Part shown: positions 213-39,823 of the stretch, in pieces
How the letters are laid out: the number at the start of each line of letters is the position of its first letter
How positions within the stretch are numbered: the stretch's first letter is position 1
NCBI GenBank assembly: GCA_964533575.1
Contig: CAZHMG010000003.1
Coordinates: forward strand, 10,276 to 74,275
Direction of reading: 5' to 3'
Length of the DNA stretch: 64,000 nt
Source: an uncultured Thermoleophilia bacterium
Lineage (GTDB): Bacteria; Actinomycetota; Thermoleophilia; UBA2241
Position numbers and translations under genes: made by a program
Notes under the pieces: model-generated
What the model saw: the letters and a program-made list of their open reading frames with translations, nothing else
Told to the model about the DNA's origin: nothing
Databases searched by the model: none

Positions 213-623
213 CGCACCTCCCGCCGCTGGCGCGTGTCATGGCTTTCACGATCCCCAAGTAACCGATCGGTCAGGATCACGATATACGTGCCCAACGCGA
301 GGGACAACTCCAGGCCCATTGAAGTGACAGACGTCGTAATCGATTGTAACGCGAAATAGTGGGCGGGGACTCCGGGCGCCCGCAGCGCGGCAGGCGGCCA
401 GCGACATCTGCCTGGGCTGGGCCAGGGGCCATCAGGAAGGCCGCTCCATGTACTGGCGGCAGTTGCGCGACATGAAGGGGTCCGCGACGTGGAGTCGATG
501 CGACCGCTCGCTCTCCTCGCCGGTGCCCCGGTTCAATCACCCCGACTTCGAGGGTGAGATCATCGGAACGGCGACGGGGCGGCCTCAAGGCCGCCCCGTC
601 GCATCGCCCCGGTCCCTTGGCTC

Positions 624-1121: not shown

Positions 1122-1400
1122 GCACCACTCCTTCTCGACGCTCCTGTGGTCCCGCCTCGGCGAGACCGTGACGAGATGATGTTACCGTAGGGTCAGTGTT
1201 GCTGCACGAGCCCGGAGCCCTCTCGGGCGTGGCGGACGACCTCATCGCGTGTTCTGCCGGCGACGGCCTTGACGGCCGGCCTGGACGGCAATGGAGTGAT
1301 GGAGCTGTGCGGTGTGCAGCCGGGGAAATGCTGGCGTACCGCTGTCGAGACGCTAGAATCAGTCGGGTACGCTCTGGCTCTCGGCTTTGAGGGGACGCCC

Positions 1401-4400: not shown

Positions 4401-4835
4401 ACGAACGAGCTGCTGCTCGAGGGAGCCCCGACCGATCAGTTCGTCACCGCGTGCTACCTGCTCATTGATCTCCCATCGGGCGCGATCGCGTACGCGATCG
4501 CGGGCCACCCCGCGCCCGTCCTCCTGCGATCCGCGTCGTGCACGAGACTGGACACCGAACACGGGCTGCCGCTGGGCGTGTTTCCGGGAACGTACACCGC
4601 GGGACGCGCGCGCCTCGTGTACGGGGACACGATCATCCTCTTCACGGACGGTCTCACCGAGACGCGGCGCAAGAAGGAGTTCTTCGGCGAACAGCGCGTG
4701 ATCTCGACCGTGTGCGGGCTCGGCGGCCTCGGGGCCCAAGCCGTCGCCGAGCAGCTGAGGCAAGCGGCCATCGAGTTCGCGAACGAATTGCGCGACGACC
4801 TGCAGATCCTGACCGTGAGGTACACGCGTCGGTAG
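1401..4835 (+). CDS. Multidomain signalling protein: N-terminal RsbW-like anti-sigma Ser kinase domain (HATPase_c_2), PAS, GAF, hydrophobic segment, PAS, GAF and C-terminal PP2C (SpoIIE-type) phosphatase
   Basis: ORF 1269..4835. The start is placed at GTG 1401, which has GAGGGGA 5 nt upstream and gives the same N-terminal spacing (12 aa before PRLIFRLPPDP) as the paralog at 17905. The N-terminus has DDVVLAVQEACTNAIRHSG...GRGFD...GRGLYLM (HATPase). A hydrophobic block (LGVASVVLIVLLGSIAIWG...ALIVIITAALGGG...AVFFAGPA...ALWAVTALIVGYL) sits mid-protein. The C-terminus has VGGDFSHVF...GDVEGKGILAAGLTETVRSA...FTDGLTETRR (PP2C). Confidence 0.85.
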   Translation: MTREELQPGVSLPRLIFRLPPDPSRLLRARERMRDYLQQYCSDQRAIDDVVLAVQEACTNAIRHSGSEEDIEVNLRLDGGDLLAEVRDKGRGFDAGDIDLDKPPPPLENCGRGLYLMAHLMDTLTLDNSGGLRVSMTKTCILGPPSLRPFIPSLEGGLTSTTRQAPEASREDRLHVLLEEINEAFFALNWEYRVVHVNRLTAELAGEPSERLLNREISEAFPLLGDEVKKACRDAMELGRPSVIEHYCPRTLHWFEIRVYPTLVGISLYLREIDERKQAEEQRRLAEEKLRQRTEDLLERVRLDDILLTIDQLIHSTLEIREIIHRALDESLAALHADVGTVEVREGDEWKMHYQRGEGSAEDERARPDTEMPVVARAARAKSAVAFSDLLDDPATAEFARDHNVRSCLAAPLIMREAVAGFLIIWCRRPRVFSPIEVEFARRLASSVSLALENSRLYEREARLAQMPATDPSFLWRFISVSRKHPLKVLGVASVVLIVLLGSIAIWGDMPQIYGIPGSLVALIVIITAALGGGRAGVAAAVIAGAVFFAGPAELGEVVSAAAALSATALWAVTALIVGYLTDALRQQARRQRAAALALGKAAAVRDAELAEQRRVESLAVELAAEREQLLTMIEQTDTSIAILDRDFVFQLVNSAYARNNGKRADELIGQDYFAVFERDDYREVFERARHSGEPSVARARPIRFQNQPERGVTYWDWRLAPVKDEAGRVRRLVVSAVDVTERVQSAQLSETLNAINARVSSRLDAHHIRDAVLELAGAALSADGGMVVVKRRGQWRPVQIWKLPAELETETFTPDEFPLAELALREQRPVFTAAYGEEARINPVLARRLGIEALVVIPLTSSKDMLGCLYFVYNSRREHSSVEIDFARKVGAVISQALVNARLLDDVQRVATTLQENLIHPLKAFYGLELGRVSQTAYQPELVGGDFSHVFRVDENRVGVLIGDVEGKGILAAGLTETVRSALSAFALVNPAPEFVLEKTNELLLEGAPTDQFVTACYLLIDLPSGAIAYAIAGHPAPVLLRSASCTRLDTEHGLPLGVFPGTYTAGRARLVYGDTIILFTDGLTETRRKKEFFGEQRVISTVCGLGGLGAQAVAEQLRQAAIEFANELRDDLQILTVRYTRR

Positions 4836-15911: not shown

Positions 15912-16121
15912 GATGCACCTGTCTCTCGCCTGTGGGTTCGCTCGAGTAAGTTCCCGGCGTGTCCCTGCGGCAAACGACGGAGAGTCCCGCAGCCAACGCA
16001 GGCGGAAGGAGGCATAGAGGCGCGGGCAGCGAAGCAGATACGCGGCGCGCGACAGGAGCAAAACGACGCTCACCCATGTCGGCTGATGCGTGCCTGTGAA
16101 TGACGTGGGTGCGGAGGAATC

Positions 16122-17800: not shown

Positions 17801-17904
17801 GAGGCCGCGGACCCTACCGAGCACAGAAGCCCGTGTCAACGGCCATGTACCGGCGTCCGGACCCTGTTCTATACTCGGTCTTCGTCCTTCGCGATTGTTG
17901 GAGC

Positions 17905-20900
17905 ATGGTGAGTCAGACAGACGTCGGCGAGGCTGGGTCCGTTCCGCGGCTCGAGTTCAGTCTCCCATATGATCCTGCCCGCCTCCTGCGCGCTCGGGTG
18001 CGCTTGCGTGAGTACCTGAGCCATCTGACGACCGAGGAGCACACGGTCGACGAGGTCATTCTCGCGATCATGGAGGCGGCGACCAACGCTCTTCGCCACA
18101 GCGGCGGATCAGGGTCGTTCGACATCAGGCTGTCCGTCGAGGACGACGAGCTGGTGGCCGTCGTTCGGGACGACGGCCAAGGATTCGATCCCTCTGGATT
18201 CCACAGGGACGAAACGCCCGATCCGCTGAGCATCGGCGGGCGGGGCCTCTTCCTCATGACCAGGCTCATGGACGCGGTGGACTTCAGTTTCGACGGAGGG
18301 TGTCAGGTGCTGATGCGCAAGCGCCTGGCCCTGGCCCCGGGATTCACGCCGCTCGGCTTCGCCCGCGCGGCCTCGCCCGAGCGCATGCACGACGGCCTCA
18401 ACGAGCGCCTCATCGAGATGCTGGAAGACGGCGACGAGGCCTTCACCGCCCTCGACTGGGAGTTCCGTTACCTGTACGTCAATCGCGCTTCAGAGCGCCT
18501 GGCGAGGCACTCCCGCCAGGAGGTCATCGGCCGCTGTGTCTTCGACGTCTTTCCGACCATGAAGGAAAGCGTGTACGAGCGCAACTACCGGCTGGCCATG
18601 GAGGAGGGTGTCGTCGCCTATTTCGAGGCGCGGTTCGAGCCGTACGGCGCATGGGACGAGCTGCGCGTCTACCCCGCGCCCTTCGGCATCGCCATCTACT
18701 TCCGTGACATCACGGAGCGCAAGCGGGTGGAGGCCGAGCATCGCGAGCTGCTGAGCGCCGTCGAGCGGCAGCGGGCGCAACTGGGAGCCGTCCTCGAGCA
18801 CCTCAACGAGGGCGTTGTGGTCGTCGATGCCGAGGCCAAGGTGCTCCAGGCGAACGCCGCCGCGCGGCGTATGGGAGGCTTCGACCGGGAGCGCGTCAGC
18901 CGCGTGCCGGACATGTGGTCCGAGTTCGAGTTGCTGACGCTGTCTGGACGGCGCCTCGCGGCGCACGAGCTACCGGGGGAGCGCGTCGCCCGCGGCGAAC
19001 GGTTCTCCGGCCTCGAGCTCACGGTCCGCAATCAGGAGAGTGGACGAGAGTTGCTGGTCAGCTTCGACGGCGTGCCCGTCCGGGACGAGCAGGGCCAGGT
19101 GGCGCTGGGCCTGCTCGCGATTCACGACATCAGCGACCGGAAGCGGGAGGAGGCGCGCGAAGCCCTGCACGGCGCGGTGGTGCGCGGCGTCACGGAGATC
19201 CTTGAGGCCGCGCTCGCCTGTACCGACGAGGAAGCGCTTGGTCGCGTGTGCCTCCGGGTCGCCGAGGGGGTGACGCAGAGCGAGTTCGGCTTCATCGACG
19301 AGATCGTCGAGGGCGACAGGCTGGCCGGCATCGCCATGAGCGACGCGGGGTATGGGGCCTGTTCGGTCGGCGAGCATCCCGGCTTCGTCGAGGGCAAAGC
19401 GAGCGACAAGGCGGCGCTGATACGCGGGCTGCACGGCGAGGTCGTTCGCTGTGGCGAGGCCTTCTACACGAACGATCCGGCGACCCACCCGGCGAGCGAA
19501 GGTCTGCCCGCGGGTCACGTCCCGTTGCACGCTTTCCTGGGTGCGCCCCTCAAGCGCGGTGCCGAGACCATCGGTGTCGTCGCGGTAGGCAATCGCGCCG
19601 GCGGATACGGCGACGATCAGCGCTGGGCGCTGGAGAGCCTTGCCTCCGTGATCGTTCAGGCGATCGATCGCCTGCGGGCACGCGCAGCCCTGCAGGAGTC
19701 CCTGGCGAGAACCCGGGTGCTGGCCAGGATCGCGGCAGCCGCGGCGGGGGCCGACAGTGCAGAACAGGTGTCGGAGGCCGTCCTGGTCGCCGCCGCCCTG
19801 CATCTCGGGCTCAAGGCGGGCAGCGTCAATTGTCTTGACGAGGTGCACGGAGAACTGCAGCGCTGCGCCACGTTCGGCGCCGCCTATGGCGATGATCCGT
19901 CCCTTCGCCTCGCCATCCCCATGGACGACACGTTCAACGTCGGCCGGATGCTGAGCGGGGGGCTGCCGTACATGACTCATGAGAGTCCCGGCCAGTCAGA
20001 GGCCAGTCGAGCGCGTTTCGCAGGGATGGGGTTCGCGGGCGACAGCTGGGTCAAGGTGCCGATCAAGACGAGCGAGAGAGTCCTCGGCGCGATGACCCTC
20101 GTGTTTCCGGGCAAGCGCGCCTTTCATCGGGACGACATCGCCTTCTACGGCGCCGTCGCTGACCAACTCGGCGTCGCGCTGCAACGCGCGCGGCTGGCTG
20201 ACGAACGCGAGACGCAGCGTCGCCTGCTCCAGCGGACGGCGCACCTCAGCCTCACTCTCGACGTGGTGAACGATGCCGTTCGGGGCGTCGTTGAGCCGCT
20301 CTCCGCCTTGGCGCAGGGCGCCCACCTGGCGGCAGCGGCGCTCGGCGCCCGGCTGTCTTCGCTCCACCTCCTCAGCGACGGCACGTGGCAGGAGCTCCGC
20401 AGAGAGAACGACGCCATCCTCTCTCGCCCTTGCGCCGCGGAGGAGGTGCCGTTGGGCGACCTGGTGCGAGAGGTCATGCGCCCTGTGGCATTCTGTCGCT
20501 TACCCGGCGCAGCCGCCCTTCTGAGTGAAGGCGCCCCACGCAGCGAATGCCTGCTCGGCGCGCCGCTTGCCAGCGGCGGTGAGATGCTCGGCGCGGTCTT
20601 CTTCGCCTCAGAGGAGGCGAGGGAGTACACGCAGGCCGAGCTCGACTTCGCACGCAAGGTCGGCGTGGCGCTCGGAGGCGCTCTCCAGAACAGGCAGCTG
20701 TATGTGGCGCTGAACGAGCAACTCGAGCTTTCGCACCTGCTTCTGCGGGCCTCCAAGGTTCTCACGCAGTGGACCGACCTCGCAGCCATGCTCGAGCGCC
20801 TGACCGACGTTCTGCTGCTCTCTGCCCCCGGTTCGCGCGTCGGTGTCGTCCTGGTCCATCCAGAGCGACATCACGCGGAGCTGGCCGCCTCCAAGGGCAT

Positions 20901-22950
20901 CGCTCCCCTCGAGAAGGGCGAGTACCTGCCGGAGGTGCTGCTCGCCGGCAGGGGAGACCTGATCCGTGCGCCGCGCACCGTCGTGGCTGAGTACGATGGT
21001 GACCTGGGGATGTCACGGGCGAAGACAGGCTTCCCGCGTCACAGACTCTTTGTGCCGGTGATGTCACGCGGCCGTCTCATGGGCTTTCTGACCGTCGAGG
21101 CTCCGGAGTCGCGGCAGGGGTTCACCCCCGGTGAGGTGAGGACGGTGGAGGCGATTGCCGACCAGGCCGCCACCGCCATCGAGAACGCACGGCTGTACGA
21201 CGCGGAGGTCGAGGCTCAGCGCCGCGCCGCGCGCGAGCTGGAGACGTCCCAACTGCTCCTCACGACCGCTTCCGCCTTCAGCTCGGAGACGGATCCCAGG
21301 CAACTCCTCAATGTGGTCACCGAAACGCTGATGCGTCGTTTCGACGAGGCCCGCGTGTCGATCACGTTGCGTCATGACGACGTGGAGACGATTGTCGCCA
21401 CCTCCGGCGGCCACGCCTACCCTGTCGGGACCGTCTTCAGGCGCGAGGAGTACTCCAAGCCGGCCCTCGAGGCCATGGAGACGGGCCGCGCCGTCGCAAT
21501 CGACTATGAGGTGCTGCCTCCCGAGGAGCGCGGTACGTCCTGCCAGTACGGCATGTGCAACAGCATTGTCGCTCCGCTCGTCACCCGCGGCCGGACCATC
21601 GGCATCCTGGTCATCGACCAAGCCAACGCTCGCACCGTCTTCACGGAGCGGGATGTGCGTCTTGCCCAGGCCATCGCCGACCAGGCCGCCGTCGCGATCG
21701 ACAACGCCATGATGCTCGACAAGGAGCGCGAGGACGCGCGCTTCGGCGAAGCGCTCGACGAGGCGGGGAAGCTGCTGCACTCTTCGCTGGACGACGACAC
21801 CATTCTGGCCGGCGCGCTGCAGTCCGGGGCACGCGCGCTGCTCGCCATCTCCGGCGTGATCGCAGTCATCGAGCGGGGAAGATGGGTCGCGAAGTGCCAG
21901 GTCGGCTTCTCGCCGGATGTTGTCGGACGCTCGTGGCCTGATGAAACGGTGCCGTTCATGGCGCAGGTTCGGCGACAGCGTGGACCGGCGATCATGAGGG
22001 ACGCGCAGGGCGGCGATAGACATCTGGCCGGGAGCGCGACCCCGCCGTCTGTCGGCTCTACGCTGGCGATTCCGCTGACGGTCGGGGAGGAGGTCGTCGG
22101 CGTGCTCGTCTACAACAAGGCCGAGATCGATGCGTTCTCGGAGGCGGAAGTGACGTTTGCCGGCAGGCTCGCGCGCTCCGTTTCGCTCGCCCTGCAGAAC
22201 GCGCGGCTCTTTGCGAACGAGCACACCATCGCCGAGACGCTGCAGGAGGCGCTGCTCGCCATGCCGGAAGCGGTGCCCGGCTTCACCATCGCCCACACGT
22301 ACCACTCCGCAACAGTGGCGGCTCGGGTGGGCGGTGACTTCTACGACGTCTTCGAGATCGCCGACGACGTCGTCGGCGTCGTCGTGGGCGACATCTCAGG
22401 CAAGGGTCTTGACGCAGCCGTGTTCACCTCAGTGGTCAAGAACGCGATCCGGGCCCAGGCCATGGACGAGGGCAAGTCGCCGGCAGACGTGCTGCGCGTC
22501 GTCAACGAGGTCCTGCTGCGCAGTTCGGCGCCGGAGATCTTCGCTTCCGTCTTCTTCGCGATCATCGAGAACGGGCACGTCGTGTACTGCAATGCAGGCC
22601 ACACGCCGGCACTGCTCCTGCATCACGACCTCAGTCTCGAGTGGTTGCCGCATACATCGCCCGTGGTGGGCGCCTTCCCGGACATGCCCTTTGTTTGCGC
22701 GGAGGCCCGTATCGAGCCCGGCGAGCTGCTCTTCCTCTACACAGACGGGCTCGTCGAGGCGCGCGTGGACGGCGTCCTCTTCGGCGAACACGGGCTCCTC
22801 GCACTGTTCGCCGAGCCGGGGATGAATGACGCCGCCTCGGCGGTGAATCGTGTGTCCGCCGCCGTGGTCGAGTTCGCCGAAGGCCGGCTGTCGGACGACC
22901 TCGCCCTGCTCGCCATCACGCCGGACGGCGCCTCCGGGTTCACGCGTTAG
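17905..22950 (+). CDS. Giant multidomain signalling protein (~1680 aa): N-terminal RsbW-like HATPase_c_2 kinase domain, two PAS, at least four GAF domains, C-terminal PP2C (SpoIIE-type) phosphatase
   Basis: It is a paralog of the 1401..4835 gene (PRLEFSLPYDPARLLRARVRLREYL vs PRLIFRLPPDPSRLLRARERMRDYL). HATPase motifs are EVILAIMEAATNALRHSG...GQGFD...GRGLFLM. The PAS domain contains DWEFRYLYVNRASERLARHSRQEVIGRCVFDVFP. Repeated GAF-like blocks each end ...ALQNARL(Y/F). The C-terminus is VGGDFYDVFEIADDVVGVVVGDISGKGLDAAVFTSVVKNAIRA...YTDGLVEAR. Confidence 0.85.
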   Translation: MVSQTDVGEAGSVPRLEFSLPYDPARLLRARVRLREYLSHLTTEEHTVDEVILAIMEAATNALRHSGGSGSFDIRLSVEDDELVAVVRDDGQGFDPSGFHRDETPDPLSIGGRGLFLMTRLMDAVDFSFDGGCQVLMRKRLALAPGFTPLGFARAASPERMHDGLNERLIEMLEDGDEAFTALDWEFRYLYVNRASERLARHSRQEVIGRCVFDVFPTMKESVYERNYRLAMEEGVVAYFEARFEPYGAWDELRVYPAPFGIAIYFRDITERKRVEAEHRELLSAVERQRAQLGAVLEHLNEGVVVVDAEAKVLQANAAARRMGGFDRERVSRVPDMWSEFELLTLSGRRLAAHELPGERVARGERFSGLELTVRNQESGRELLVSFDGVPVRDEQGQVALGLLAIHDISDRKREEAREALHGAVVRGVTEILEAALACTDEEALGRVCLRVAEGVTQSEFGFIDEIVEGDRLAGIAMSDAGYGACSVGEHPGFVEGKASDKAALIRGLHGEVVRCGEAFYTNDPATHPASEGLPAGHVPLHAFLGAPLKRGAETIGVVAVGNRAGGYGDDQRWALESLASVIVQAIDRLRARAALQESLARTRVLARIAAAAAGADSAEQVSEAVLVAAALHLGLKAGSVNCLDEVHGELQRCATFGAAYGDDPSLRLAIPMDDTFNVGRMLSGGLPYMTHESPGQSEASRARFAGMGFAGDSWVKVPIKTSERVLGAMTLVFPGKRAFHRDDIAFYGAVADQLGVALQRARLADERETQRRLLQRTAHLSLTLDVVNDAVRGVVEPLSALAQGAHLAAAALGARLSSLHLLSDGTWQELRRENDAILSRPCAAEEVPLGDLVREVMRPVAFCRLPGAAALLSEGAPRSECLLGAPLASGGEMLGAVFFASEEAREYTQAELDFARKVGVALGGALQNRQLYVALNEQLELSHLLLRASKVLTQWTDLAAMLERLTDVLLLSAPGSRVGVVLVHPERHHAELAASKGIAPLEKGEYLPEVLLAGRGDLIRAPRTVVAEYDGDLGMSRAKTGFPRHRLFVPVMSRGRLMGFLTVEAPESRQGFTPGEVRTVEAIADQAATAIENARLYDAEVEAQRRAARELETSQLLLTTASAFSSETDPRQLLNVVTETLMRRFDEARVSITLRHDDVETIVATSGGHAYPVGTVFRREEYSKPALEAMETGRAVAIDYEVLPPEERGTSCQYGMCNSIVAPLVTRGRTIGILVIDQANARTVFTERDVRLAQAIADQAAVAIDNAMMLDKEREDARFGEALDEAGKLLHSSLDDDTILAGALQSGARALLAISGVIAVIERGRWVAKCQVGFSPDVVGRSWPDETVPFMAQVRRQRGPAIMRDAQGGDRHLAGSATPPSVGSTLAIPLTVGEEVVGVLVYNKAEIDAFSEAEVTFAGRLARSVSLALQNARLFANEHTIAETLQEALLAMPEAVPGFTIAHTYHSATVAARVGGDFYDVFEIADDVVGVVVGDISGKGLDAAVFTSVVKNAIRAQAMDEGKSPADVLRVVNEVLLRSSAPEIFASVFFAIIENGHVVYCNAGHTPALLLHHDLSLEWLPHTSPVVGAFPDMPFVCAEARIEPGELLFLYTDGLVEARVDGVLFGEHGLLALFAEPGMNDAASAVNRVSAAVVEFAEGRLSDDLALLAITPDGASGFTR

Positions 22951-23142
22951 CCGGGGCTGGCTGCGCCGCACCGGCTGCCTCTCCCTTCCGCCGCCCTTCC
23001 CGCCTCGTTCTGATTTCCGCCGGGGCAACGGCGCAAAGGGGGAGGAGTATCGCCAGACTCTGCCGAAAAACGCTCACATCGCACGATGCCGGCGCCGATG
23101 GTGCCCCGGCAGGCTATGGAGCGTTTGACGGAGGCGCACGAC

Positions 23143-23544
23143 ATGAGAACCGGTATGCTGACCACTCGCAAGCTGCGCAGCACCAGTGATCTGCAGAGCC
23201 TGCGCGAGTGGTTGCGGGGTGAGCTCGCCTCGTACGCCGACAGAGCATTGGTGGCTGACGTGGTCGTGGCCACCCAGGAGGCGGTGACCAACTCACTCCG
23301 CTCTCACGGCGAAGGCACGCGCCCCGTCAAAGTGAGACTCACTGTCGATGATGACTACCTTTGGGTGGAGGTCGAGGACTGTGGTTCCGGCTTCCTGAGG
23401 GTCGAGACATGGTGCCAGCGGCCGTCTTCCGATGCCGTCCACGGACGCGGGCTTTATCTCATGCGGACCCTCATGGATGTCCTTGAGATCTCCTCTTACC
23501 CGGCGGGGTCACGCGTTCGCATGGGGAAGCGCCTCGTCGCCTGA
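23143..23544 (+). CDS. Anti-sigma regulatory factor (RsbW/SpoIIAB-like Ser/Thr kinase, HATPase_c_2), stand-alone
   Basis: MRTGMLTTRKL...ADVVVATQEAVTNSLRSHGEG...VEVEDCGSGF...HGRGLYLMRTLMD. GGAGG lies 8 nt before ATG 23143. The in-frame 23086 start is less likely. Confidence 0.8.
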   Translation: MRTGMLTTRKLRSTSDLQSLREWLRGELASYADRALVADVVVATQEAVTNSLRSHGEGTRPVKVRLTVDDDYLWVEVEDCGSGFLRVETWCQRPSSDAVHGRGLYLMRTLMDVLEISSYPAGSRVRMGKRLVA

Positions 23545-27478: not shown

Positions 27479-27781
27479 CTAGGCCGCTCTCTCCCGCACC
27501 CGCACCGTCCGGTTGAGCAACTTGAAGAAGTCGCTGGGTTCGCCTTCGCGGTTGATGTCCTGATAGAGGAACTCCAGCTCTTTGTCCTCGAAGATGGTGA
27601 AGAATTCGTCCCACGTGATCTTCTCCAGCCAGGAACCATGGCTGCCGGGGAAGTCGAGACGCAGGCCGCTGGCTTCGTTGCCAGGCCCTGTGCCTCTGAC
27701 TGCCGCGGGCGTCGCGCCTCGCTGTTCGGCCCATCGCCGGATCGTGGCGTGATCCGTCGTGCGTTTCGTCGTCCCGGCCAT
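27479..27781 (-). CDS. Hypothetical conserved small protein (100 aa)
   Basis: MAGTTKRTTDHATIRRWAEQRGATPAAV...WDEFFTIFEDKELEFLYQD... GGGAGG lies upstream of the ATG at complement 27779-27781. It is the last gene of the minus-strand TopIB-Ku cluster. Confidence 0.5.
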   Translation of the reverse strand: MAGTTKRTTDHATIRRWAEQRGATPAAVRGTGPGNEASGLRLDFPGSHGSWLEKITWDEFFTIFEDKELEFLYQDINREGEPSDFFKLLNRTVRVRERAA

Positions 27782-27890
27782 GACCGCCTCCCGCGGAGAT
27801 GACTGCTTCGTTCGGTTCACGTGTAGCCGAGGCGACGGGAATTCAAACGCGTGACGGTTGTCGCCTCTCCGGGCGGACGCAGGGATGCGG

Positions 27891-28736
27891 TCAGCGGGAG
27901 GCATGGCGCTCCGCCATGTCGCCGGCGGCCTCGCCTTGCGTCTGCTGACGTTCGACACTCGCCTTGAGGAGGGTCATGATGTCGACGACCTCGGCCTCCT
28001 GCTCCTCGGCGACGCGGGCGGGCTCCAGCACCTCGTGCTCCTGCCCCGCCTCGACCTTGCGCTTTACGAGGTCCAGCACTTCGTCGCGGTACTGGTCGCG
28101 GTACTGCTCCGGTTGCCACGTCTCGACCATGGCCGAGACCAGCTGCTCGGCGAGGGCGACCTCGCGGTCCTTGACGCCGAGGGCCTCGAGATCCTCATCG
28201 GGAATCTCGAGCTCGGCGGTCCCGCGCAGCTCATGCGCGTAGCGCAGCTGCTCGAGCACCAGCACGGTACCGACGGGGAGCACGGCGGCGAGGTACTCCT
28301 TGGTGCGCATGACGATCTTGGCGATAGCCACATGGCGGCTGCGGCGGAGCGCCTCGCGCAGGAGGGCGTACCCCTTTTGGCCCCCCTGTGTGGGGACGAC
28401 GTAGTAGGGCCGGTCGAAGTAGCGAGGATCTATCTCGTCGGTGGAGACGAACGCCTGGATGTCGATCGTGTGGGTGGCCTTGGGATCGACGGCGTCGAGC
28501 TCCTCCTCGCTGACCACCACATACCGGTCTGGCGCGTACTCGTAGCCCTTGATGACGTCGCCCCACTCCACCTCTCGCCCGGTCTGTTCGTTGATGCGGT
28601 GCTCCCGTACGGGGGTGAGCGTCGAACGGTCGAGCTGACGAAAACGCAGCGCATCGCGGCTCTCGGCCGCGTAGAGCGCTACCGGCACGTTGACGAGCCC
28701 GAAGCTTATGGCGCCTTTCCAGATCGGACGAGGCAT
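27891..28736 (-). CDS. ku: Ku protein (non-homologous end joining DNA-binding protein)
   Basis: MPRPIWKGAISFGLVNVPVALYAAESRDALRFRQL...YFDRPYYVVP... is the canonical bacterial Ku core with an acidic/basic C-terminal tail. The start is at ATG complement 28734-28736 inside the longer ORF 27891..29162. Confidence 0.9.
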   Translation of the reverse strand: MPRPIWKGAISFGLVNVPVALYAAESRDALRFRQLDRSTLTPVREHRINEQTGREVEWGDVIKGYEYAPDRYVVVSEEELDAVDPKATHTIDIQAFVSTDEIDPRYFDRPYYVVPTQGGQKGYALLREALRRSRHVAIAKIVMRTKEYLAAVLPVGTVLVLEQLRYAHELRGTAELEIPDEDLEALGVKDREVALAEQLVSAMVETWQPEQYRDQYRDEVLDLVKRKVEAGQEHEVLEPARVAEEQEAEVVDIMTLLKASVERQQTQGEAAGDMAERHASR

Positions 28737-28890
28737 TCGTGGGCCTTTCGTTGCGTCAGCGATGGTGCCTGTGACACACAGGCTTCCCGCCCGCAGGATG
28801 GGACAAACGGGACGCGAACGAGGACACTCGCGGCTGAGGCCGAGCGGGGCGGGAGACTCAGCCTGGCCGCGGGGCGGCCCGGCTCGCGCA

Positions 28891-29268
28891 CTACTTGTGC
28901 AGCTCGTCGTGCACGTGGTCGAGGAACGCTTGGCCGGCGCGCTCGCTGAGGAGACCAGCCACCTGCTCGGTGGCGCCGCGATCCTCAAAGGATGGAAGAC
29001 GCAGCGGGGCGCTTCTGAAGCCGCCCCGTTCGCGCACCACGCCGAGGTCGGAATGTCCGAGATCGCCCAAGGCGGCAACGGCGTCGAGCATGAGCGTTCG
29101 CTCGCGCTGGCCGTCACCCGCGTCGCGCGTCTCCATGCACATGAGGTACACGACCTGGTCATGCAGCAGGTAGGCGGGCTTGCCGGTCAGCAGTCGCCGC
29201 AGCGCTGCTGCCGGGACGTTGTCCACGGCCCGCTCCTGCGGATAGTCGAGAAGCTGCCACTTGCCCAT
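28891..29268 (-). CDS. Hypothetical protein (125 aa) between hemerythrin and Ku
   Basis: MGKWQLLDYPQERAVDNVPAAALRRLL... AGGAGG lies 6 nt upstream of the ATG. No family recognised. Confidence 0.5.
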   Translation of the reverse strand: MGKWQLLDYPQERAVDNVPAAALRRLLTGKPAYLLHDQVVYLMCMETRDAGDGQRERTLMLDAVAALGDLGHSDLGVVRERGGFRSAPLRLPSFEDRGATEQVAGLLSERAGQAFLDHVHDELHK

Positions 29269-29365
29269 GTTCGCCTCCTGCTGATGATCTTGGACTCGTC
29301 GTGCGTGTCGCCGAAAGCGGTCCGGCGGCCGGTTCAGGGGGAGGTCGGCCGCCGGACCGCAACCG

Positions 29366-30967
29366 TCAGGCTGCTCTCTTGCGCTCCTCGAACCTCTCGC
29401 CGAGCTCCTCGGCCTGCTGCTGGTCCACGATCTGGCGTGCCGCCGGGAAGAACTCGCCTTCCTCCTCCTCCACGTGGTGCTGGACCAGGTCCGTGAGCAC
29501 CTTGAGTTTGGCGCTCCACTTCTCGTCGTCGTCGCCGCGCGCCAGCTCGCCGAGCACTCGCTTGGTCACTTTGTGTTCCTCGTACCCCTCGAGCACCAGT
29601 TTACGCGTCGCCTCCTCTTTCTCGAAGCGCTTGTACACCACCTTCTCCTCAGCTTCCATATGGCTGCTGAGCTCCTTCTCGAGCTTGTCGAAGATGCGCT
29701 TCTGCTTGCCCTTCTCGGCAAGCTGTTCGAGCAGGTCATTGACCTCGGCGTGCTCCTGTGTCAGCTCCTCGAAGATGTCCATCCGTCCTCCTCCGTCATC
29801 GTCAGGATGCCTAGAATCGGTACCCTCGACGGAGAGGCCGTTAACGCGGTCGGCCGTTCCCGGCGGGCGCGCGAAGGGGGCTACACAGGCTTCGAACCGC
29901 TGCAGCAGGTCGAGCACGGCGCGTTCCGCCACATGCTGAGCCTCGAGCGGCAGGGGGTAGGAATCACCGCCGAGGAGGGAGTCCGGGAGTTCGGCGGTCT
30001 CTCCCCGCAGAAATGCCTCCGTGACGTATGGGTGGATGTACGAGGATCGTGAGACCGCCGGGGTGTTGCCCAGTTGCTGGGCGACGTCCCGGACGACCCC
30101 GGGGATCGGGCTTCGCCTGCCCCGGGCGGCGCGGGCGGCACGCGCCAGTCCGAGCGCCGCGAGGACCGTGGCGTGCCATGTCCTGAAATCCTTGGCCGTG
30201 AAGGACCGGCCTGCCGACTGCTTGATGTAGTCGTTGATGTCGGAGGAGCGCACATCCCGCCATGCGCGATCGTCGTCCATGTAGGCAAGGAGCTCCTCGC
30301 CGCCCCCGCGCCGCAGCTCGAGGCGCCAGATGATGTGGCGCACATCATGGTCGTCTATGCTCACCGTCCGCTCGATGCCGCCTTTGGCGTCATAGCTGAA
30401 CCGGACGATTCCCGAACGCGTCACGGTCACGTGATCCCTGAGGATCGTGGCCAGGCCGAAGGTCGCGTTCTGGGCGGCGTAGCTCTCGCCGCCGACACGG
30501 AAGAGACCCAGATCGAGGAGGCGAACCGCGGCCGCCAGCACCTGCTCACGGCTCATGTCGTTGCGCGCCAGATCCTGTGCCACCTGCCGGCGCAGCGACG
30601 GCAGCGCCTCGGCGAAGGGGATCATGCGGCCGAACTTCTCCTCGCTGCGGCAGTCCCGCCAGCGCTCGTGATAGAGGTACTGGCGGCGACCGGCCGCATC
30701 CGTTCCCATCGCTTGGATGTGCCCGTTGCGCCAGGGGCAGATCCACACGTGTTCCCACGCCGGCGGGATCACCAGGGCTTCGATGCGGGCGAGCGTTGTC
30801 CCGTCGACGACGAGCAGCCCGTCGGCGTCCAGGTAGTCGAAGCCGTCGCCGCGACGGACGCGGCGCAGCCCCGGGAGTGACGGGTCGCTGCGCCGCAGGC
30901 GGCAGCGATCCGGCCGTTTGCGACGTGCCCGCCTCTCCTCATCACTCTGAGCTCCGCCGTGCGCCAC
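29366..30967 (-). CDS. Type IB DNA topoisomerase (bacterial TopIB) reading through in-frame into a C-terminal hemerythrin-like domain. The hemerythrin part (29366..29782) has its own SD+ATG.
   Basis: TopIB motifs are GLRRVRRGDGFDYLDADG, VIPPAWEHVWICP, FRVGGESYAAQNATFG, FTAKDFRTWHAT and the active-site SRSSYIHP (SKxxY). There is no stop codon before MDIFEELTQEHAEVNDLL...HHVEEEEGEFFP (hemerythrin HHE-type). GGAGGAGG sits 4 nt upstream of that internal ATG and also encodes DDDGGGR. The TopIB start (GTG at complement 30965-30967) is uncertain. Confidence 0.65.
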   Translation of the reverse strand: MAHGGAQSDEERRARRKRPDRCRLRRSDPSLPGLRRVRRGDGFDYLDADGLLVVDGTTLARIEALVIPPAWEHVWICPWRNGHIQAMGTDAAGRRQYLYHERWRDCRSEEKFGRMIPFAEALPSLRRQVAQDLARNDMSREQVLAAAVRLLDLGLFRVGGESYAAQNATFGLATILRDHVTVTRSGIVRFSYDAKGGIERTVSIDDHDVRHIIWRLELRRGGGEELLAYMDDDRAWRDVRSSDINDYIKQSAGRSFTAKDFRTWHATVLAALGLARAARAARGRRSPIPGVVRDVAQQLGNTPAVSRSSYIHPYVTEAFLRGETAELPDSLLGGDSYPLPLEAQHVAERAVLDLLQRFEACVAPFARPPGTADRVNGLSVEGTDSRHPDDDGGGRMDIFEELTQEHAEVNDLLEQLAEKGKQKRIFDKLEKELSSHMEAEEKVVYKRFEKEEATRKLVLEGYEEHKVTKRVLGELARGDDDEKWSAKLKVLTDLVQHHVEEEEGEFFPAARQIVDQQQAEELGERFEERKRAA

Positions 30968-31130
30968 AGCCAGCCGTCGCCTTCCGATGCTCGTCGTCGC
31001 CGAGGAACTTCCCGAGCGTGGGAGGGGCGAAACAGCACGCGGTGCCTGCGCCGGCAGCCGGTGAGGAAATGGTTTCGCCGCGCTCCGCGCGGGAACCTCA
31101 CGAGAGGTGCAGCTGTGAAGGAGGTGCAAG

Positions 31131-31196
31131 ATGTACATCGGAGTCGGAGCAGCCGTCGTGATTCTGATCATCATCCTGTTGATCATCCTGCTCTAG
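31131..31196 (+). CDS. Candidate 21-aa hydrophobic mini-protein (type I toxin-like or small membrane peptide)
   Basis: ATG MYIGVGAAVVILIIILLIILL TAG. AAGGAGGTG SD lies 4-5 nt upstream. It is an AT-rich codon island in a 70% GC genome. Not in the ORF track because it is below the size cutoff. Confidence 0.3.
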   Translation: MYIGVGAAVVILIIILLIILL

Positions 31197-31344
31197 GAGC
31201 GAGACGGCACGGTGACAGGCCCATCTGCTTGATCTCGATGAAGGAGAAACGATGGACTGGAACATCATTGAGGGCAAGTGAAGCCCACAAACGCGCCGAC
31301 GACCGGGCTCGTCGGCAGGCGGCGTGGTGCAGGGTCGAGGATGA

Positions 31345-31387
31345 GGGACACACCAGGCCCGCCCGCCGGGCGGGCCTGGTGTGTCCC
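31345..31387. repeat. 43-bp perfect palindrome (21-bp arms), candidate stem-loop, bidirectional terminator or protein-binding site
   Basis: gggacacaccaggcccgcccg c cgggcgggcctggtgtgtccc. Its reverse complement is identical except for the central base. Confidence 0.5.
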
Positions 31388-31466
31388 TCGTGTGACGGGA
31401 AGGTCACCCTTTGGCGGCCGTCCGTGTGATAGGGAAGACCGCCATTTGGCGGCACGATGGGGGTCT

Positions 31467-31495
31467 TGCGCAAGTCGCGCTGCCCTGCTATCATC
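31467..31495 (+). promoter_or_regulatory. Putative sigma-70-type promoter for the downstream sigma-factor gene
   Basis: TTGCGC, a 17-nt spacer, then TATCAT, ending about 78 nt upstream of the GTG start at 31574. Confidence 0.3.
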
Positions 31496-31573: not shown

Positions 31574-32686
<1,113 letters not shown>

Positions 32687-35792: not shown

Positions 35793-37424
35793 ATGCACAG
35801 CACATCAGCAGCGAGCATCGGAGGGACCATGGACCTGGTGCAGCTTTCACGCAAGGACCTCGACGCCGTCGTATTCGACATGGATGGCGTCGTCACGCGA
35901 ACGGCCGCCGTCCACGCCGCCGCTTGGAAGAGGCTCTTCGACGCCTACCTCGCCGGCCGCGGCGTGCGAGAGCAGGTCGTCTACGAACCCTTCGACGCGG
36001 ACGGCGACTACCGGCTCTATGTCGACGGCAAGCCGCGCTACGACGGCGTCGCCTCCTTCCTGCTCTCACGGGGCATCGAGCTTCCGTGGGGCGACCCGAG
36101 CGACCCCCCGGATGCAGAGACCGTCTGCGGGCTGGGCAACTCGAAGAACGACTACTTCCGCAGCGAGATCGAGGAGCACGGGGTGCGTCCGTTCGAGACC
36201 ACGGTCGATCTGGTCCGGGAGCTGCAGGCGCACGGGTTCGGGACAGCAATCATCTCCGCCAGCCGGAACGCCGAAGTCGTTTTGAACGCAGCCGGCGTCG
36301 GCGACCTGTTTCCGGTCCGCGTCGACGGCCTCGTCGCCGAAGAGCTCTCGCTGCCGGGCAAGCCGGATCCCGCCGTGTTCGTCGAGGCGGCTCGGCAGCT
36401 AGGGGCGACGCCGGCGCGCACGGCGATCGTCGAAGACGCCATCGCCGGCGTGACCGCCGGCCGCCGCGGAGCGTTCGCCCTCGTCATCGGCGTCGACCGC
36501 AGCGGCAGCGACGCCCCCGGCCTGCTCGAGAACGGCGCCGACGTCGTTGTTCGCGACCTGGCTGAGGTGGTCGTCGCCGAGGAGGGATCGCAGGCAGCAG
36601 CGCCGTCGATCGGCGCCGAGCAGAGACCGCGGGCAGCCGCGCCGACGATCAGCGCCGACGAGGTGGTGGCTGGGCTGGAAGGCGCTCTGGCGGTCTTCCT
36701 GGACTACGACGGCACGCTCACGCCGATTGTCAACGACCCGGCGGCAGCGTTTCTGCCGACGGCCATGCGGCCGGTGTTGGAGCGCCTCGCCAAGGTTTGT
36801 CCCGTCGCCATCGTGAGCGGCCGCGACTTGGCCGACGTGAAGCAGCTCGTCGCCGTAGAAGGCCTTGTCTACGCGGGCAGCCACGGCTACGACATCGATG
36901 CGCCCATGAACCTCGGCGGCCGCCGCCAGGTCGGAGACGACTACACGGCGGCCCTGGACGAGGCCGAGAAGGCGCTGCACGAGGAGCTCGACGGCATCCC
37001 GCGCGTCTTCATCGAGCGCAAGCGCTTCGCGATCGCCATCCACTATCGTAACGTCGATCCCGGCGACGAGCCGCGCGTCGACGACGGTGTGAGCCGCGTC
37101 GCCCCTCGCTTCGCCAATCTGCGCCGCACCGGCGGCAAGAAGGTCTTCGAGTTGCGCCCCGCGATGGCCTGGGACAAGGGGGCCCTGGTGCGCTGGCTGC
37201 TCGAGCAGCTCTCGGCGGCCAGCCACGCGCCGCTGACGCCTCTCTATATGGGCGACGATGTGACGGACGAGGACGCCTTCCGCGCCATAGCGGACGACGG
37301 CATCGGCGTCAGGGTCGGCGACCCCGGCGAAACCACCGCGGCGCGCTACGTCCTCGAGGACACCGAGGCCGCGCGCGAGTTCCTCGAGGAGCTCGCGGCC
37401 GCGCTCGAGGAGAGTGCCGCATGA
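35793..37424 (+). CDS. Bifunctional HAD hydrolase: beta-phosphoglucomutase-like domain fused to trehalose-6-phosphate phosphatase (OtsB-like) domain
   Basis: The N-terminal half has LDAVVFDMDGVVTRTAAVHAAAWKRLF...GKPDPAVFVEAARQLG...IVEDAIAGVTAG (beta-PGM HAD subfamily IA). The C-terminal half has LAVFLDYDGTLTPIV...IVSGRD...GSHGYD...LYMGDDVTDEDAF (T6PP HAD IIB). Its stop overlaps the GH65 start (ATGA). Confidence 0.8.
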   Translation: MHSTSAASIGGTMDLVQLSRKDLDAVVFDMDGVVTRTAAVHAAAWKRLFDAYLAGRGVREQVVYEPFDADGDYRLYVDGKPRYDGVASFLLSRGIELPWGDPSDPPDAETVCGLGNSKNDYFRSEIEEHGVRPFETTVDLVRELQAHGFGTAIISASRNAEVVLNAAGVGDLFPVRVDGLVAEELSLPGKPDPAVFVEAARQLGATPARTAIVEDAIAGVTAGRRGAFALVIGVDRSGSDAPGLLENGADVVVRDLAEVVVAEEGSQAAAPSIGAEQRPRAAAPTISADEVVAGLEGALAVFLDYDGTLTPIVNDPAAAFLPTAMRPVLERLAKVCPVAIVSGRDLADVKQLVAVEGLVYAGSHGYDIDAPMNLGGRRQVGDDYTAALDEAEKALHEELDGIPRVFIERKRFAIAIHYRNVDPGDEPRVDDGVSRVAPRFANLRRTGGKKVFELRPAMAWDKGALVRWLLEQLSAASHAPLTPLYMGDDVTDEDAFRAIADDGIGVRVGDPGETTAARYVLEDTEAAREFLEELAAALEESAA

Positions 37425-39823
37425 ACGGCTGGACCCTCGTCTATGATGGATTCGACCCGGCCGACGAAGGGCTGCGCGAGGCGCTGTGCACGCTCGGCAA
37501 CGGCTACTTCGCCACCCGCGGGGCGCTGCCGGAAGCGAGCGCCGACGAGGTCCACTACCCGGGCACGTACGTCGCCGGGTGTTTCAACCGTCTCACGACC
37601 GAGATCGCCGGGAGGGACGTCGAGAACGAGGACATGGTCAATGTCCCGAACTGGCTGTCCTTCACCTTCCGCATCGAAGACGGTCCGTGGCTCGACCTGC
37701 GATCCGTGACCGTTCTGAGCCACACGCTCGAGCTCGACGTGCGCCGGGGCGTGCTCACACGCTTCACCAGGTTCATGGACGACGCCGGCCGGACGACCTC
37801 CCTCACACAGCGCCGCTTCGTTCACATGGACCTGCATCACCTCGCCGGGGTCGAGACCACGATCGTGGCCGAGGATTGGGCCGGCCGCGTGGACATCCTG
37901 TCCGCGCTCGACGGTACTGTGACGAACTCGGGTGTGCCTCGCTACCGGGAGCTGAGCCATATCCACCTCGCTCCCGTGGAGGAGGTCGTGGAGCAGGACG
38001 GCACGATGACGCTGGCCGTCGAGACGAGCCAGTCGCACATCCGTCTGGCGGAGTCGGCCTCCCTGAAGGTAAACGGGGCTTCCCTGGCCGACGGCGCGAT
38101 CCGCGAACGGATAGTCCGCCCCGGATACGTTGCAGTGCGCTTCACAGCCGATGTGGAGGCGGGCCAGCCGCTGCGCGTCGAGAAGGTCGTCACGCTCCTT
38201 TCATCGCGCGACGCGGCCATCTCCGCCCCGGAGACGTCGAGCCGGGCGATGCTCGATGCGGCGCTGCCGTTCGCCGAGCTCTTAGCGCTCCACGAGAAGG
38301 CCTGGGACCGGCTGTGGCGGCGCGCCGACGTCTCGCTGCCCGGCTCCCCAGACATGGAGCTCATGTTGCGCCTGCACGCGTATCACACCCTGCAGGTGGC
38401 ATCGCCGAACGTCGTGGGCCTCGACGTGGGGGCTCCCGCTCGCGGCCTCCACGGGGAGGCCTACCGCGGGCACATCTTCTGGGACGAGCTCTACATCCTG
38501 CCGTTTGTGACAAGGTCGCTGCCTCAGGTCTCGCGCTCGCTGCTGCTCTACCGCCATCGGCGCCTGCCTGCGGCCCGCGCCGCGGCCAGGGCAGCCGGGC
38601 TTCAGGGCGCCATGTTCCCCTGGCAGAGCGGCAGTGACGGGCGCGAAGAGACGCAGACGATGCACCTCAACCCGAAGTCCGGGCGCTGGCTGCCGGACAA
38701 CTCGCACCTCCAGCGTCACGTTGCTCTGGCCATCGCCTACAACGTCTGGAAGTACTACGAGTGGACCGGGGACGAGGAGTTTCTCGCCGGCTACGGCGCT
38801 GAGCTCTTCCTCGAGCTGTTGCGGTTCATGGCCGGGCTGGCCACGTTCAACGAGACGACTGGGCGCTACGACATCCGTGGCGTCATGGGGCCCGACGAGT
38901 ATCACGACGGGTATCCCGGCGTCGACGAACCCGGGATAGACAACAACACGTACACCAACGCTATGACCGCCTGGATGGCCGCGAAGGCCGGCGAGATTTT
39001 GGCGCGGCTGTCGGAATGGCGCCGCGCCGAGCTCTTCGACCAGCTCGGCATCGCCGACGACGAGCCGGCGCGCTGGGACGAGCTCTCGCGCCGGTTGACG
39101 CTGGTCTTCCAGGACGATGGCGTGCTCAGCCAGTTCGAGGGCTACGACGAGCTGCTGGAGTTCGACTGGGAGGGCTACCGCGCCAAGTACGGCGACATTC
39201 ACCGGCTCGACCGCATTCTGGAGGCGGAAGGCGATACCGCGAACCGCTACAAGCTGTCCAAGCAGGCAGACGTCGTGATGCTGTTCTACCTGCTGTCCTT
39301 TGAGGAGGTGGCGGCTCTGCTGGAGCGGCTGGACTATGGCTTCGATGCGGCTGCGGCCGATCGCACCATCGCCTATCACGAGCAGCGCAGTTCGCACGGC
39401 TCGACGCTCAGCCGAGCCGTGTATGCCTGGGCCATGGGGCGAAGCAATCCGGCAGCGGCCTGGCAGCACTTCGCCGTCGCCCTCGGCAGCGACCTGCATG
39501 ACATCCAGGGCGGCACGACGCGCGAGGGAGTGCACCTCGGCGTGATGGCGAGCACCGTCGATCTCATCCAGCGTGGCTACACGGGTCTGGGGACGAGCGC
39601 GGGGTGCCTCTCCTTCAACCCCCAGCTGCCCGATGAGATCCCGGAACTGTCGTACGCGATGTCGTACCGCGGGCATCTGATCGAGGTGTTCTGCAATCAC
39701 CAGACCCTTCGCCTGAGTCTCGCGGACACCGGTGCGGCATCGATCGCCGCGCGTGTGTGTGGCGACGAATGCCACCTCGTCTCCGGGCAGACGATCGAGG
39801 TGGGGCTGCCGGCGCGCTCATAA
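37421..39823 (+). CDS. Glycoside hydrolase family 65 disaccharide phosphorylase (trehalose / kojibiose / maltose phosphorylase-like)
   Basis: 800-aa protein with GH65 N-terminal, central catalytic (alpha/alpha)6 and C-terminal domains (...YRGHIFWDELYILPF..., ...GPDEYHDGYPGVDEPGIDNNTYTNAM...). Confidence 0.85.
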   Translation: MNGWTLVYDGFDPADEGLREALCTLGNGYFATRGALPEASADEVHYPGTYVAGCFNRLTTEIAGRDVENEDMVNVPNWLSFTFRIEDGPWLDLRSVTVLSHTLELDVRRGVLTRFTRFMDDAGRTTSLTQRRFVHMDLHHLAGVETTIVAEDWAGRVDILSALDGTVTNSGVPRYRELSHIHLAPVEEVVEQDGTMTLAVETSQSHIRLAESASLKVNGASLADGAIRERIVRPGYVAVRFTADVEAGQPLRVEKVVTLLSSRDAAISAPETSSRAMLDAALPFAELLALHEKAWDRLWRRADVSLPGSPDMELMLRLHAYHTLQVASPNVVGLDVGAPARGLHGEAYRGHIFWDELYILPFVTRSLPQVSRSLLLYRHRRLPAARAAARAAGLQGAMFPWQSGSDGREETQTMHLNPKSGRWLPDNSHLQRHVALAIAYNVWKYYEWTGDEEFLAGYGAELFLELLRFMAGLATFNETTGRYDIRGVMGPDEYHDGYPGVDEPGIDNNTYTNAMTAWMAAKAGEILARLSEWRRAELFDQLGIADDEPARWDELSRRLTLVFQDDGVLSQFEGYDELLEFDWEGYRAKYGDIHRLDRILEAEGDTANRYKLSKQADVVMLFYLLSFEEVAALLERLDYGFDAAAADRTIAYHEQRSSHGSTLSRAVYAWAMGRSNPAAAWQHFAVALGSDLHDIQGGTTREGVHLGVMASTVDLIQRGYTGLGTSAGCLSFNPQLPDEIPELSYAMSYRGHLIEVFCNHQTLRLSLADTGAASIAARVCGDECHLVSGQTIEVGLPARS

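Follow-up and report, generated by a model that had tools for sequence, protein, structure and literature searches.

Ku, a topoisomerase IB–hemerythrin fusion and stress-type promoter-like motifs in an uncultured Thermoleophilia bacterium: known parts in a new arrangement

What type IB topoisomerases (TopIB) do in the physiology of bacteria is, to our knowledge, essentially unknown, and bacterial Ku is thought to work almost exclusively with LigD. A stretch of 64,000 nucleotides from an uncultured Thermoleophilia soil bacterium (assembly GCA_964533575.1, contig CAZHMG010000003.1, positions 10,276 to 74,275; hereafter the window, whose numbering is used throughout) carries a minus-strand cluster in which a Ku gene, flanked by genes for two hypothetical proteins (hyp2 and hyp1), lies downstream of a TopIB fused to a hemerythrin (Hr) domain (TopIB::Hr). 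The locus consists of known parts in a new arrangement, and a functional link between Ku, TopIB and hemerythrin is probable on the sequence comparisons described here; the arrangement of the trio hints at an undescribed DNA-upkeep partnership in dormant cells.

The closest described systems are four. The locus for non-homologous end joining (NHEJ) in bacteria combines Ku with LigD (Aravind & Koonin 2001). The type IB enzyme of Deinococcus radiodurans, DraTopIB (Krogh & Shuman 2002), is bound and stimulated in Deinococcus by the DNA-end-binding protein PprA (PMC3893189). General-stress regulons have been found to include comparable genes: in Sphingomonas melonis, the general-stress genes that depend on EcfG include those for Ku and topoisomerase IB (PMC6599016), and among the SigF-dependent genes of Mycobacterium smegmatis are one for a 'Type I topoisomerase' (MSMEG_1784) and two for hemerythrin HHE proteins (PMC4694148). 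SigF promoters of M. smegmatis follow the consensus GTTT-N14-19-GGGTA, and the listed examples include GTTT-N16-GGGAA and, for one SigF-dependent gene, GTTT-N16-GGCTA (PMC4694148). The motif found in the window matches this consensus as well as that of the SigB type in Bacillus and Streptomyces, including the SigB homologues of S. coelicolor (PMC8346170). Lastly, PA2171 of Pseudomonas aeruginosa is a small, stand-alone, stress- or persister-induced hemerythrin-like protein that binds the ribosome and FtsZ, not DNA (PMC13041383).

The window is actinobacterial DNA of ~67% G+C, and its closest relatives are Thermoleophilia metagenome-assembled genomes. Four co-oriented genes, each backed by third-position G+C and by homology, occupy its minus strand in the order TopIB::Hr (29366..30967, 533 aa), hyp2 (28891..29268, 125 aa), Ku (27891..28736, 281 aa) and hyp1 (27479..27781, 100 aa). 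All four had been called in a first-pass annotation and prove to be real genes at or near the coordinates given there; the gaps between them, which that annotation described as short, measure 97, 154, and 109 nt in order and are thus not especially short. It had also remarked on the absence of LigD, which holds within the 64-kb window: a domain search of the window's large open reading frames (ORFs) returned no ligase or primase-polymerase domain, no ATP-dependent ligase or LigD lies within ~10 kb of Ku in the window, and the only KxDGxR ligase motif there falls within a PGA_cap protein at 48465.

The explanation that we favour, with moderate confidence, is that these are separately transcribed genes of a single stationary-phase or general-stress regulon, governed by a SigF/SigB-type sigma factor and serving DNA maintenance in non-growing cells. 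The pattern GTTT-N15-17-GGGWA matches the window four times against 0.32 matches expected, and none of 100 shuffles reached four. Every copy is oriented towards a start codon 35–47 nt downstream, the genes behind the four motifs being Ku, TopIB::Hr, a 21-aa hydrophobic ORF and an F420/NADP-oxidoreductase-like gene. A pattern scan places GTTT-N16-GGGAA on the minus strand 41 nt upstream of the TopIB::Hr GTG (31009..31033) and, with the concurrence of a spacer alignment, 47 nt upstream of the Ku ATG (28784..28808); GTTT-N15-GGGAA stands divergently, on the plus strand, 35 nt upstream of the small ORF (31072..31095). The hyp1 gene has a variant, GTTT-N16-GGCTA, 42 nt upstream (27824..27848, minus strand), which is conserved in the relatives L005 and L010 as GTTTGgATTC-N10-CTCGGCTACACGT. 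Ku, TopIB::Hr, hyp1, and the 21-aa ORF each therefore begin 35–47 nt downstream of GTTT-N15/16-GGGAA or its GGCTA form. The fourth match, GTTT-N16-GGGAA at 15951-15975 (minus strand), lies 39 nt upstream of the oxidoreductase-like gene (PF03807; 15267-15911, minus strand) and suggests that the window holds more members of the regulon.

Comparison between lineages points in the same direction. When the hyp2–Ku spacer is aligned over five lineages, the sole invariant blocks are CCGTTTG and CGGGAA, with a variable stretch between them, and these blocks are unchanged in relatives L001, L003, L005, and L010 despite a dS of 0.7–1.6, at which synonymous sites are near saturation. The same type of motif is found upstream of Ku (GTTT-N15-GGGAA) and Hr (GTTA-N15-GGGTA) in L170, upstream of Hr in L094, and upstream of TopIB in L172 and L178; no motif of the GTTT/GGGWA type was found for hyp2 in any lineage compared. 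With a GTTT -35 element, a spacer of 14–19 nt, a GGG(A/T)A -10 element, a start codon downstream, and conservation among relatives, the motifs are apparently SigF/SigB-type promoters.

The four genes do not clearly form an operon. The stop codon of TopIB::Hr is immediately followed by a terminator-like hairpin (29317..29360, minus strand; inverted repeat I11) with a perfect 15-bp G+C stem, a dG of -41 kcal/mol, and a z-score of -5.06, and downstream of it Ku and hyp1 each have their own conserved motif. The first-pass annotation had read the cluster as a single stress-linked DNA-repair module and had named independent promoters or terminators between the genes as the finding that would count against this. 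Such elements are predicted here, both in the hairpin after TopIB::Hr and in the Ku motif kept over five lineages; the cluster thus appears not to be one transcription unit. The proposed connection with stress fares better, being in keeping with the motifs at TopIB::Hr, at Ku, and, in variant form, at hyp1, while the single co-transcribed module is not.

Compared with the SigF/SigB regulons, the locus has the motif GTTT-N15/16-GGG(A/T)A and the nearby RsbW, STAS, and PP2C genes in common, and the gene content overlaps in a type I topoisomerase, hemerythrin HHE proteins, alpha/beta hydrolases, and trehalose genes. In Bacillus, Ku is under the control of sigma-G. The locus tag of Ku in M. smegmatis, presumably MSMEG_5580, does not appear in the text of the M. 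smegmatis study.

A second line of evidence comes from the neighbourhoods of the genes in other genomes. The three TopIB homologs closest to the window's (61–63% identity) each have Ku immediately upstream on their contigs, with gaps of 2, 4, and 20 nt, and these Ku proteins are 69–72% identical to that of the window. In one of the relatives with a 2–4 nt gap (L170; the other is L171), a free-standing Hr gene follows the Ku–TopIB pair and shares 59% identity with the Hr domain of the window; this arrangement is found elsewhere on the chromosome, with acyl-CoA dehydrogenase and DUF3870 genes on its flanks. In L179, the sigma gene is followed divergently by Hr, hyp2, Ku, and hyp1, with a stand-alone Hr exactly at the position of the window's TopIB::Hr. 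Among 80 more distant TopIB loci from metagenomes, Ku is nearby in two (L143 and L162), where RsbW and STAS genes stand between or beside Ku and TopIB, and a hemerythrin gene adjoins TopIB in two others (L094 and L144). A distant actinobacterial group with Ku–TopIB proximity has a Ku only 45% identical.

The association of Ku, TopIB, and Hr is thus a minority pattern overall, yet consistent and variously rearranged within the window's clade. Conservation of the gene order in related Actinobacteria had been proposed as a check; what recurs is the company of the three genes in other orders, and at the same locus TopIB::Hr is missing from most relatives. Recurrence in rearranged orders is better evidence of a functional link than simple synteny, and the existence of several rearranged forms within the clade argues for selection over inertia. 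Ku and TopIB::Hr probably cooperate functionally. Literature searches turned up neither a Ku–TopIB operon nor a TopIB::hemerythrin fusion. The Ku–TopIB pair (gaps of 2–20 nt), the natural fusion, and the shared stress-type promoter together offer a lead for a role of TopIB in Ku-dependent upkeep of the DNA of non-growing cells, and the fusion constitutes a 'Rosetta-stone' link between its two proteins.

Under the favoured explanation, starvation, oxidative stress or desiccation would cause an alternative sigma factor to turn the genes on. Ku would load onto broken DNA ends and hold them, and TopIB, being independent of ATP and Mg2+, would relieve torsional stress or resolve structures on Ku-held or compacted DNA, possibly after recruitment or stimulation by Ku. 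The latter would resemble the stimulation of TopoIB by PprA, which is a functional analogue of the proposed pairing; here, the partner would be Ku and the link is genomic only. The di-iron hemerythrin domain might make the enzyme respond to the status of O2, oxidants or iron, or might also be made separately via a retained internal ribosome-binding site, the fusion itself having presumably arisen when the stop codon between adjoining TopIB and Hr genes was lost. As for the hypothetical proteins, hyp2 would be a clade-specific small protein probably acting with Ku, and hyp1 a stress protein adjacent by locality only. It is unlikely, although worth stating, that the trio goes further and constitutes a system, so far unrecognised, by which dormant Actinobacteria maintain their DNA ends: Ku would recruit TopIB instead of or alongside LigD, the di-iron domain would gate TopIB by redox, O2 or iron, and hyp2 would be a lineage-specific Ku adaptor.

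Several points weigh against the favoured explanation. At nine loci from about six relatives (L001-L006, L010, and L180), the sigma gene is divergent from hyp2, Ku, hyp1, and an alpha/beta hydrolase gene, with neither TopIB nor Hr beside Ku; therefore, either the link can be dispensed with or the partners are encoded elsewhere in those genomes. Beyond the two of 80 metagenome loci mentioned above, Ku was near TopIB in none of three further look-ups and in none of the four actinobacterial TopIB loci fetched from a plasmid collection. The supporting contexts come from few lineages and so are not phylogenetically independent. No SigF-like sigma gene was identified in the window, a difference from the described SigF/SigB regulons, and sigma dependence and induction in this organism are read from the motifs. 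The sensing role of hemerythrin is pure inference, and the curated family nearest to the Hr domain is that of PA2171, with its ribosome and FtsZ partners.

The clustering could, moreover, reflect a shared stress island and not direct cooperation, with Ku, TopIB, Hr, hyp1, and hyp2 as unrelated members of the regulon that have drifted into the same variable region. This would agree with the presence of a promoter-like motif for each gene and of hairpins between them, with the finding that hyp1 elsewhere sits among general-stress genes, and with the neighbours of TopIB elsewhere, which are stress and partner-switching genes without Ku; Ku is missing at most TopIB loci. Drift does not readily account for the 2–4 nt Ku–TopIB gaps in L170 and L171, which indicate coupling at the level of co-translation, nor for the recurrence of the trio in at least three orders at two chromosomal locations of one clade, nor for the renewed proximity of Ku and TopIB in the distant actinobacterial group. 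Coincidence in a stress island is a doubtful alternative to functional cooperation.

TopIB::Hr itself carries three domains that share one open frame. The whole ORF extends from 29366 to 31186 (606 aa, the numbering used for residues below), and a start at the GTG at 30967 is favoured by comparison with homologs and by a coding signal that fades above ~30900; the resulting 533-aa protein is present in a public collection as P0061. On the minus strand, ~29900-30967 encodes the TopIB part, 29783-29899 the linker, and 29366-29782 the hemerythrin domain. The N-terminal domain of poxvirus-type TopIB (PF21338) scores 79.1 bits against a cut-off of 27 (E 2e-22), and the catalytic domain (PF01028) 87.3 bits against 23.7 (E 1.3e-24). 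Residues R230, K268, R335, N374, and Y383 are invariant columns in the alignment of TopIB homologs, and we assign them to the catalytic pentad Arg-Lys-Arg-(His/Asn)-Tyr of DraTopIB and vaccinia TopIB. The enzyme is thus apparently a catalytically complete, poxvirus-type TopIB. It shares with DraTopIB the PF21338 and PF01028 architecture and the invariant residues assigned to the pentad, but differs in its C-terminal hemerythrin domain: among the best 120 of 7,924 TopIB homologs, the window's protein is the sole case of a fusion with PF01814.

The hemerythrin HHE domain (PF01814) is recognised at 58–61 bits against a cut-off of 25.3 (E 1.6e-15), and its translation keeps the H-HxxxE-H-HxxxE pattern of di-iron ligands in QEH, SHMEAE, EEH, and HHVEEE. 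The PA2171 family model (NF053874) is the closest curated one, and with 71.7 bits (E 5.6e-20) against an equivalog cut-off of 190 the domain is a related non-member. PA2171 is, furthermore, a stand-alone protein that acts on ribosomes and FtsZ, whereas the window's domain is fused to a DNA enzyme.

An architecture that is unique among these 120 homologs could arise from an assembly or sequencing error, or from a stop codon lost so recently that Hr is still made separately from its own ribosome-binding site, with no functional fusion in either case. The start of the Hr domain does have a perfect internal Shine-Dalgarno (SD) sequence, GGAGGAGGA, followed by an ATG (29780..29794, minus strand), several out-of-frame stop codons occur within the linker, and free-standing Hr genes lie at the equivalent position in L170, L094, and L179. 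An error is contradicted by the contig L007 of an independent single-run assembly, which is identical at 735 of 735 positions across the domain junction. The frame, too, is open: similarity to TopIB continues in frame to the point where the homologs end, after which ~25 more codons, including GGAGGAGGA, lead to the Hr ATG. In L179 (475-760), the Hr frame is likewise open for ~95 codons upstream of the Hr ATG at 760, which suggests an old read-through state. The absence of a functional fusion is, on balance, very improbable.

The SD and ATG inside the fusion align with the ones at which free-standing Hr begins in L179 and L170, which suggests a former, possibly still used, independent Hr start; Hr may accordingly also be translated separately. 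The simplest origin of the fusion is the loss of the stop codon between neighbouring TopIB and Hr genes. The upstream extension in L179 aligns weakly, but in frame, with the C-terminus of the window's TopIB and the linker, and may be the remnant of a deleted TopIB. This hints, weakly, that TopIB–Hr could be ancestral at this locus and was deleted later in relatives. The public gene call at the position of the L179 Hr gene is a 218-aa protein on the minus (opposite) strand without a Pfam match and appears to be a miscall. A mobile-element origin of the TopIB::Hr block was considered and rejected as evidence for it is lacking: neither direct nor inverted repeats were found at the flanks of the block, nor a tRNA close by, no integrase or Rfam element was found in the region, and its G+C is normal.

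Ku begins at the ATG at 28736, as opposed to the ORF start at 29162, and is a bona fide member of its family: it scores 291.4 bits against TIGR02772 (cut-off 150, E 6e-87, residues 1-255 covered) and 163 bits against PF02735 (cut-off 25). Its C-terminus has the minimal motif VVDIMTLLKAS and no basic extended tail, and this end of the protein (VVDIMTLLKASV) aligns with VIDIMSLLKAS and VPDLMAALKASL of relatives. The window's Ku therefore resembles that of the NHEJ locus in family membership and minimal motif, and it resembles Ku elsewhere, such as the EcfG-dependent Ku of Sphingomonas, in being apparently under a stress or stationary-phase sigma factor. It differs in its neighbours, which are TopIB::Hr, hyp2, and hyp1, with no LigD, ligase or primase-polymerase in the 64 kb. 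In sister lineages, TopIB holds the tightly coupled downstream slot that is often LigD's.

This position raises the question of ligase-independent end joining, in which Ku would bridge the ends and TopIB would seal or process them, replacing LigD when ATP is scarce, by covalent 3'-phosphotyrosyl chemistry in which a strand is passed to a 5'-OH end. Strand transfer by TopIB to heterologous 5'-OH acceptors is established chemistry and the basis of TOPO cloning. LigD and the ligase motif, absent at the locus within the 64-kb window, were not seen on the short Ku–TopIB contigs either. Ku and LigD lie within 10 kb of each other in 75% of conventional-NHEJ genomes (PMC7719229), so TopIB occupies LigD's usual position. 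Ku-dependent, LigD-independent NHEJ has, in addition, been described in P. aeruginosa with an unidentified sealing enzyme (PMC13273297), a process to which the present locus is relevant. TopIB, however, joins only those ends that it has itself cleaved, and ordinary breaks with 3'-OH and 5'-phosphate ends are not sealable by it; literature searches found no precedent. A ligase-independent joining role is thus conceivable but chemically unsupported for ordinary breaks, and we consider it most unlikely.

The two hypothetical proteins have neither a Pfam nor an NCBIfam match. They are nonetheless genuine genes because they have full-length homologs (29 for hyp2, 31 for hyp1), a dN/dS of 0.14–0.22 that equals that of Ku (at dS 0.7–1.6), and confident structural models. 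These AlphaFold2 models, a check suggested by the first-pass annotation in proposing both proteins as Ku/TopIB accessory factors, reach a pLDDT of 93 for hyp2 and 82 for hyp1.

For hyp2, such a role remains a reasonable proposition. It is, judging by its homologs, a clade-restricted orphan, has a conserved AGGAGG SD sequence, and lies directly upstream of Ku at all 14 recovered hyp2 loci, which include several repeat assemblies of one lineage and present three different upstream contexts. The gap between the two genes is 16–17 nt in L179 and L180 and 93–166 nt, with the Ku promoter motif in between, elsewhere; hyp2 is not present at the Ku–TopIB loci. Its adjacency to Ku makes hyp2 a fair candidate for a Ku-associated protein. 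In the tails of the Ku proteins, a Lys/Arg-rich C-terminal extension is seen where Ku is coupled to TopIB (L170 1650-1746, L171, L143, and L162), and the hyp2-linked Ku proteins (window 27891-27960, L001, L003, and L005) lack a basic tail, one of whose functions hyp2 might take over.

The hyp1 protein belongs to a widespread family without a Pfam or NCBIfam model, which numbers at least 556 loci, spread over many phyla (Chloroflexota, Acidobacteriota, Planctomycetota, Bacteroidota, Pseudomonadota, Bacillota, and Cyanobacteriota among them), and has the consensus TTDHxxIRRWAEERGAxPA...ITWDEFF..F....L.FLYQ. Among 80 hyp1 loci from other genomes, Ku is adjacent in none and within 8 kb in one (~6 kb away), and TopIB is near in two. 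The usual neighbours are general-stress genes, labelled by reading representative sequences, with no family search, as YhdF-like SDR, DUF892/YciF-like, and Rho_N/ChaB-like. Being widespread and not linked to Ku elsewhere, hyp1 is a poor candidate for a specific accessory factor, and the accessory role first proposed for it falls away; we infer that it is a widespread general-stress protein only locally adjacent to Ku. No structural neighbour was found for hyp1, and its similarity to Lsr2-type DNA-binding helices, weak and below the threshold, is no more than a lead. The locus thus draws attention to two uncharacterised families, of which hyp2 is confidently folded and tied to Ku, and hyp1 is very widespread, with a stress-gene context.

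Further elements lie in the spacer of 606 bp that separates TopIB::Hr from the divergent sigma-70 gene (31574-32686; 370 aa, RpoD type). The 21-aa hydrophobic ORF (MYIGVGAAVVILIIILLIILL; 31131..31196, plus strand) is unannotated, being below the 60-aa minimum of the ORF list, and was read from the sequence; it diverges from TopIB::Hr, has a perfect SD (GAAGGAGG), and its GTTT-N15-GGGAA stands back-to-back with the TopIB::Hr motif. Downstream of it is a hairpin formed by a perfect 23-bp palindrome (31343..31389; inverted repeat I1; dG -54 kcal/mol, z -7.8). The ORF could encode a small membrane peptide induced by stress, or be a type-I-toxin-like gene. At 31397-31418 and 31432-31453, 35 nt apart, stand two direct repeats of 22 nt, GGGAAGGTCACCCTTTGGCGGC and GGGAAGACCGCCATTTGGCGGC, which might be an operator. 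A simple scan for sigma-70 promoters and terminators gave nothing useful, as is expected for a high-G+C actinobacterium. A conserved AT-rich element between the sigma gene and hyp2 was considered as the hyp2 promoter and rejected; it is assigned to the sigma gene because it reads, on the sigma strand, as an extended -10 element (TGCTATCAT; 31486..31494, plus strand), with TGnTAnnnT in five of five lineages. In L179, a GTTT-N15-GGGTA (469-492, minus strand) lies ~40 nt upstream of the RpoD-like sigma gene, which may itself be under SigF/SigB-type control in that lineage.

Elsewhere in the window, two giant proteins of the architecture HATPase_c_2-PAS-GAF-(GAF)n-PP2C (SpoIIE), with 1188 and 1705 aa, are encoded on the plus strand at 1269-4835 and 17833-22950, and a small RsbW-like kinase at 23086-23544, also on the plus strand. 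They form an unusually rich partner-switching neighbourhood that is conserved in relatives; RsbW-like and PP2C proteins are typical partner-switching regulators of SigF/SigB-type sigma factors. Genes for a HAD/trehalose-phosphatase-like protein and a GH65 phosphorylase (35793-39823, plus strand), whose domain labels come from the gene calls of syntenic relatives, lie ~5 kb away from the cluster; they are syntenic in all relatives and agree with a theme of desiccation or osmotic stress in the region.

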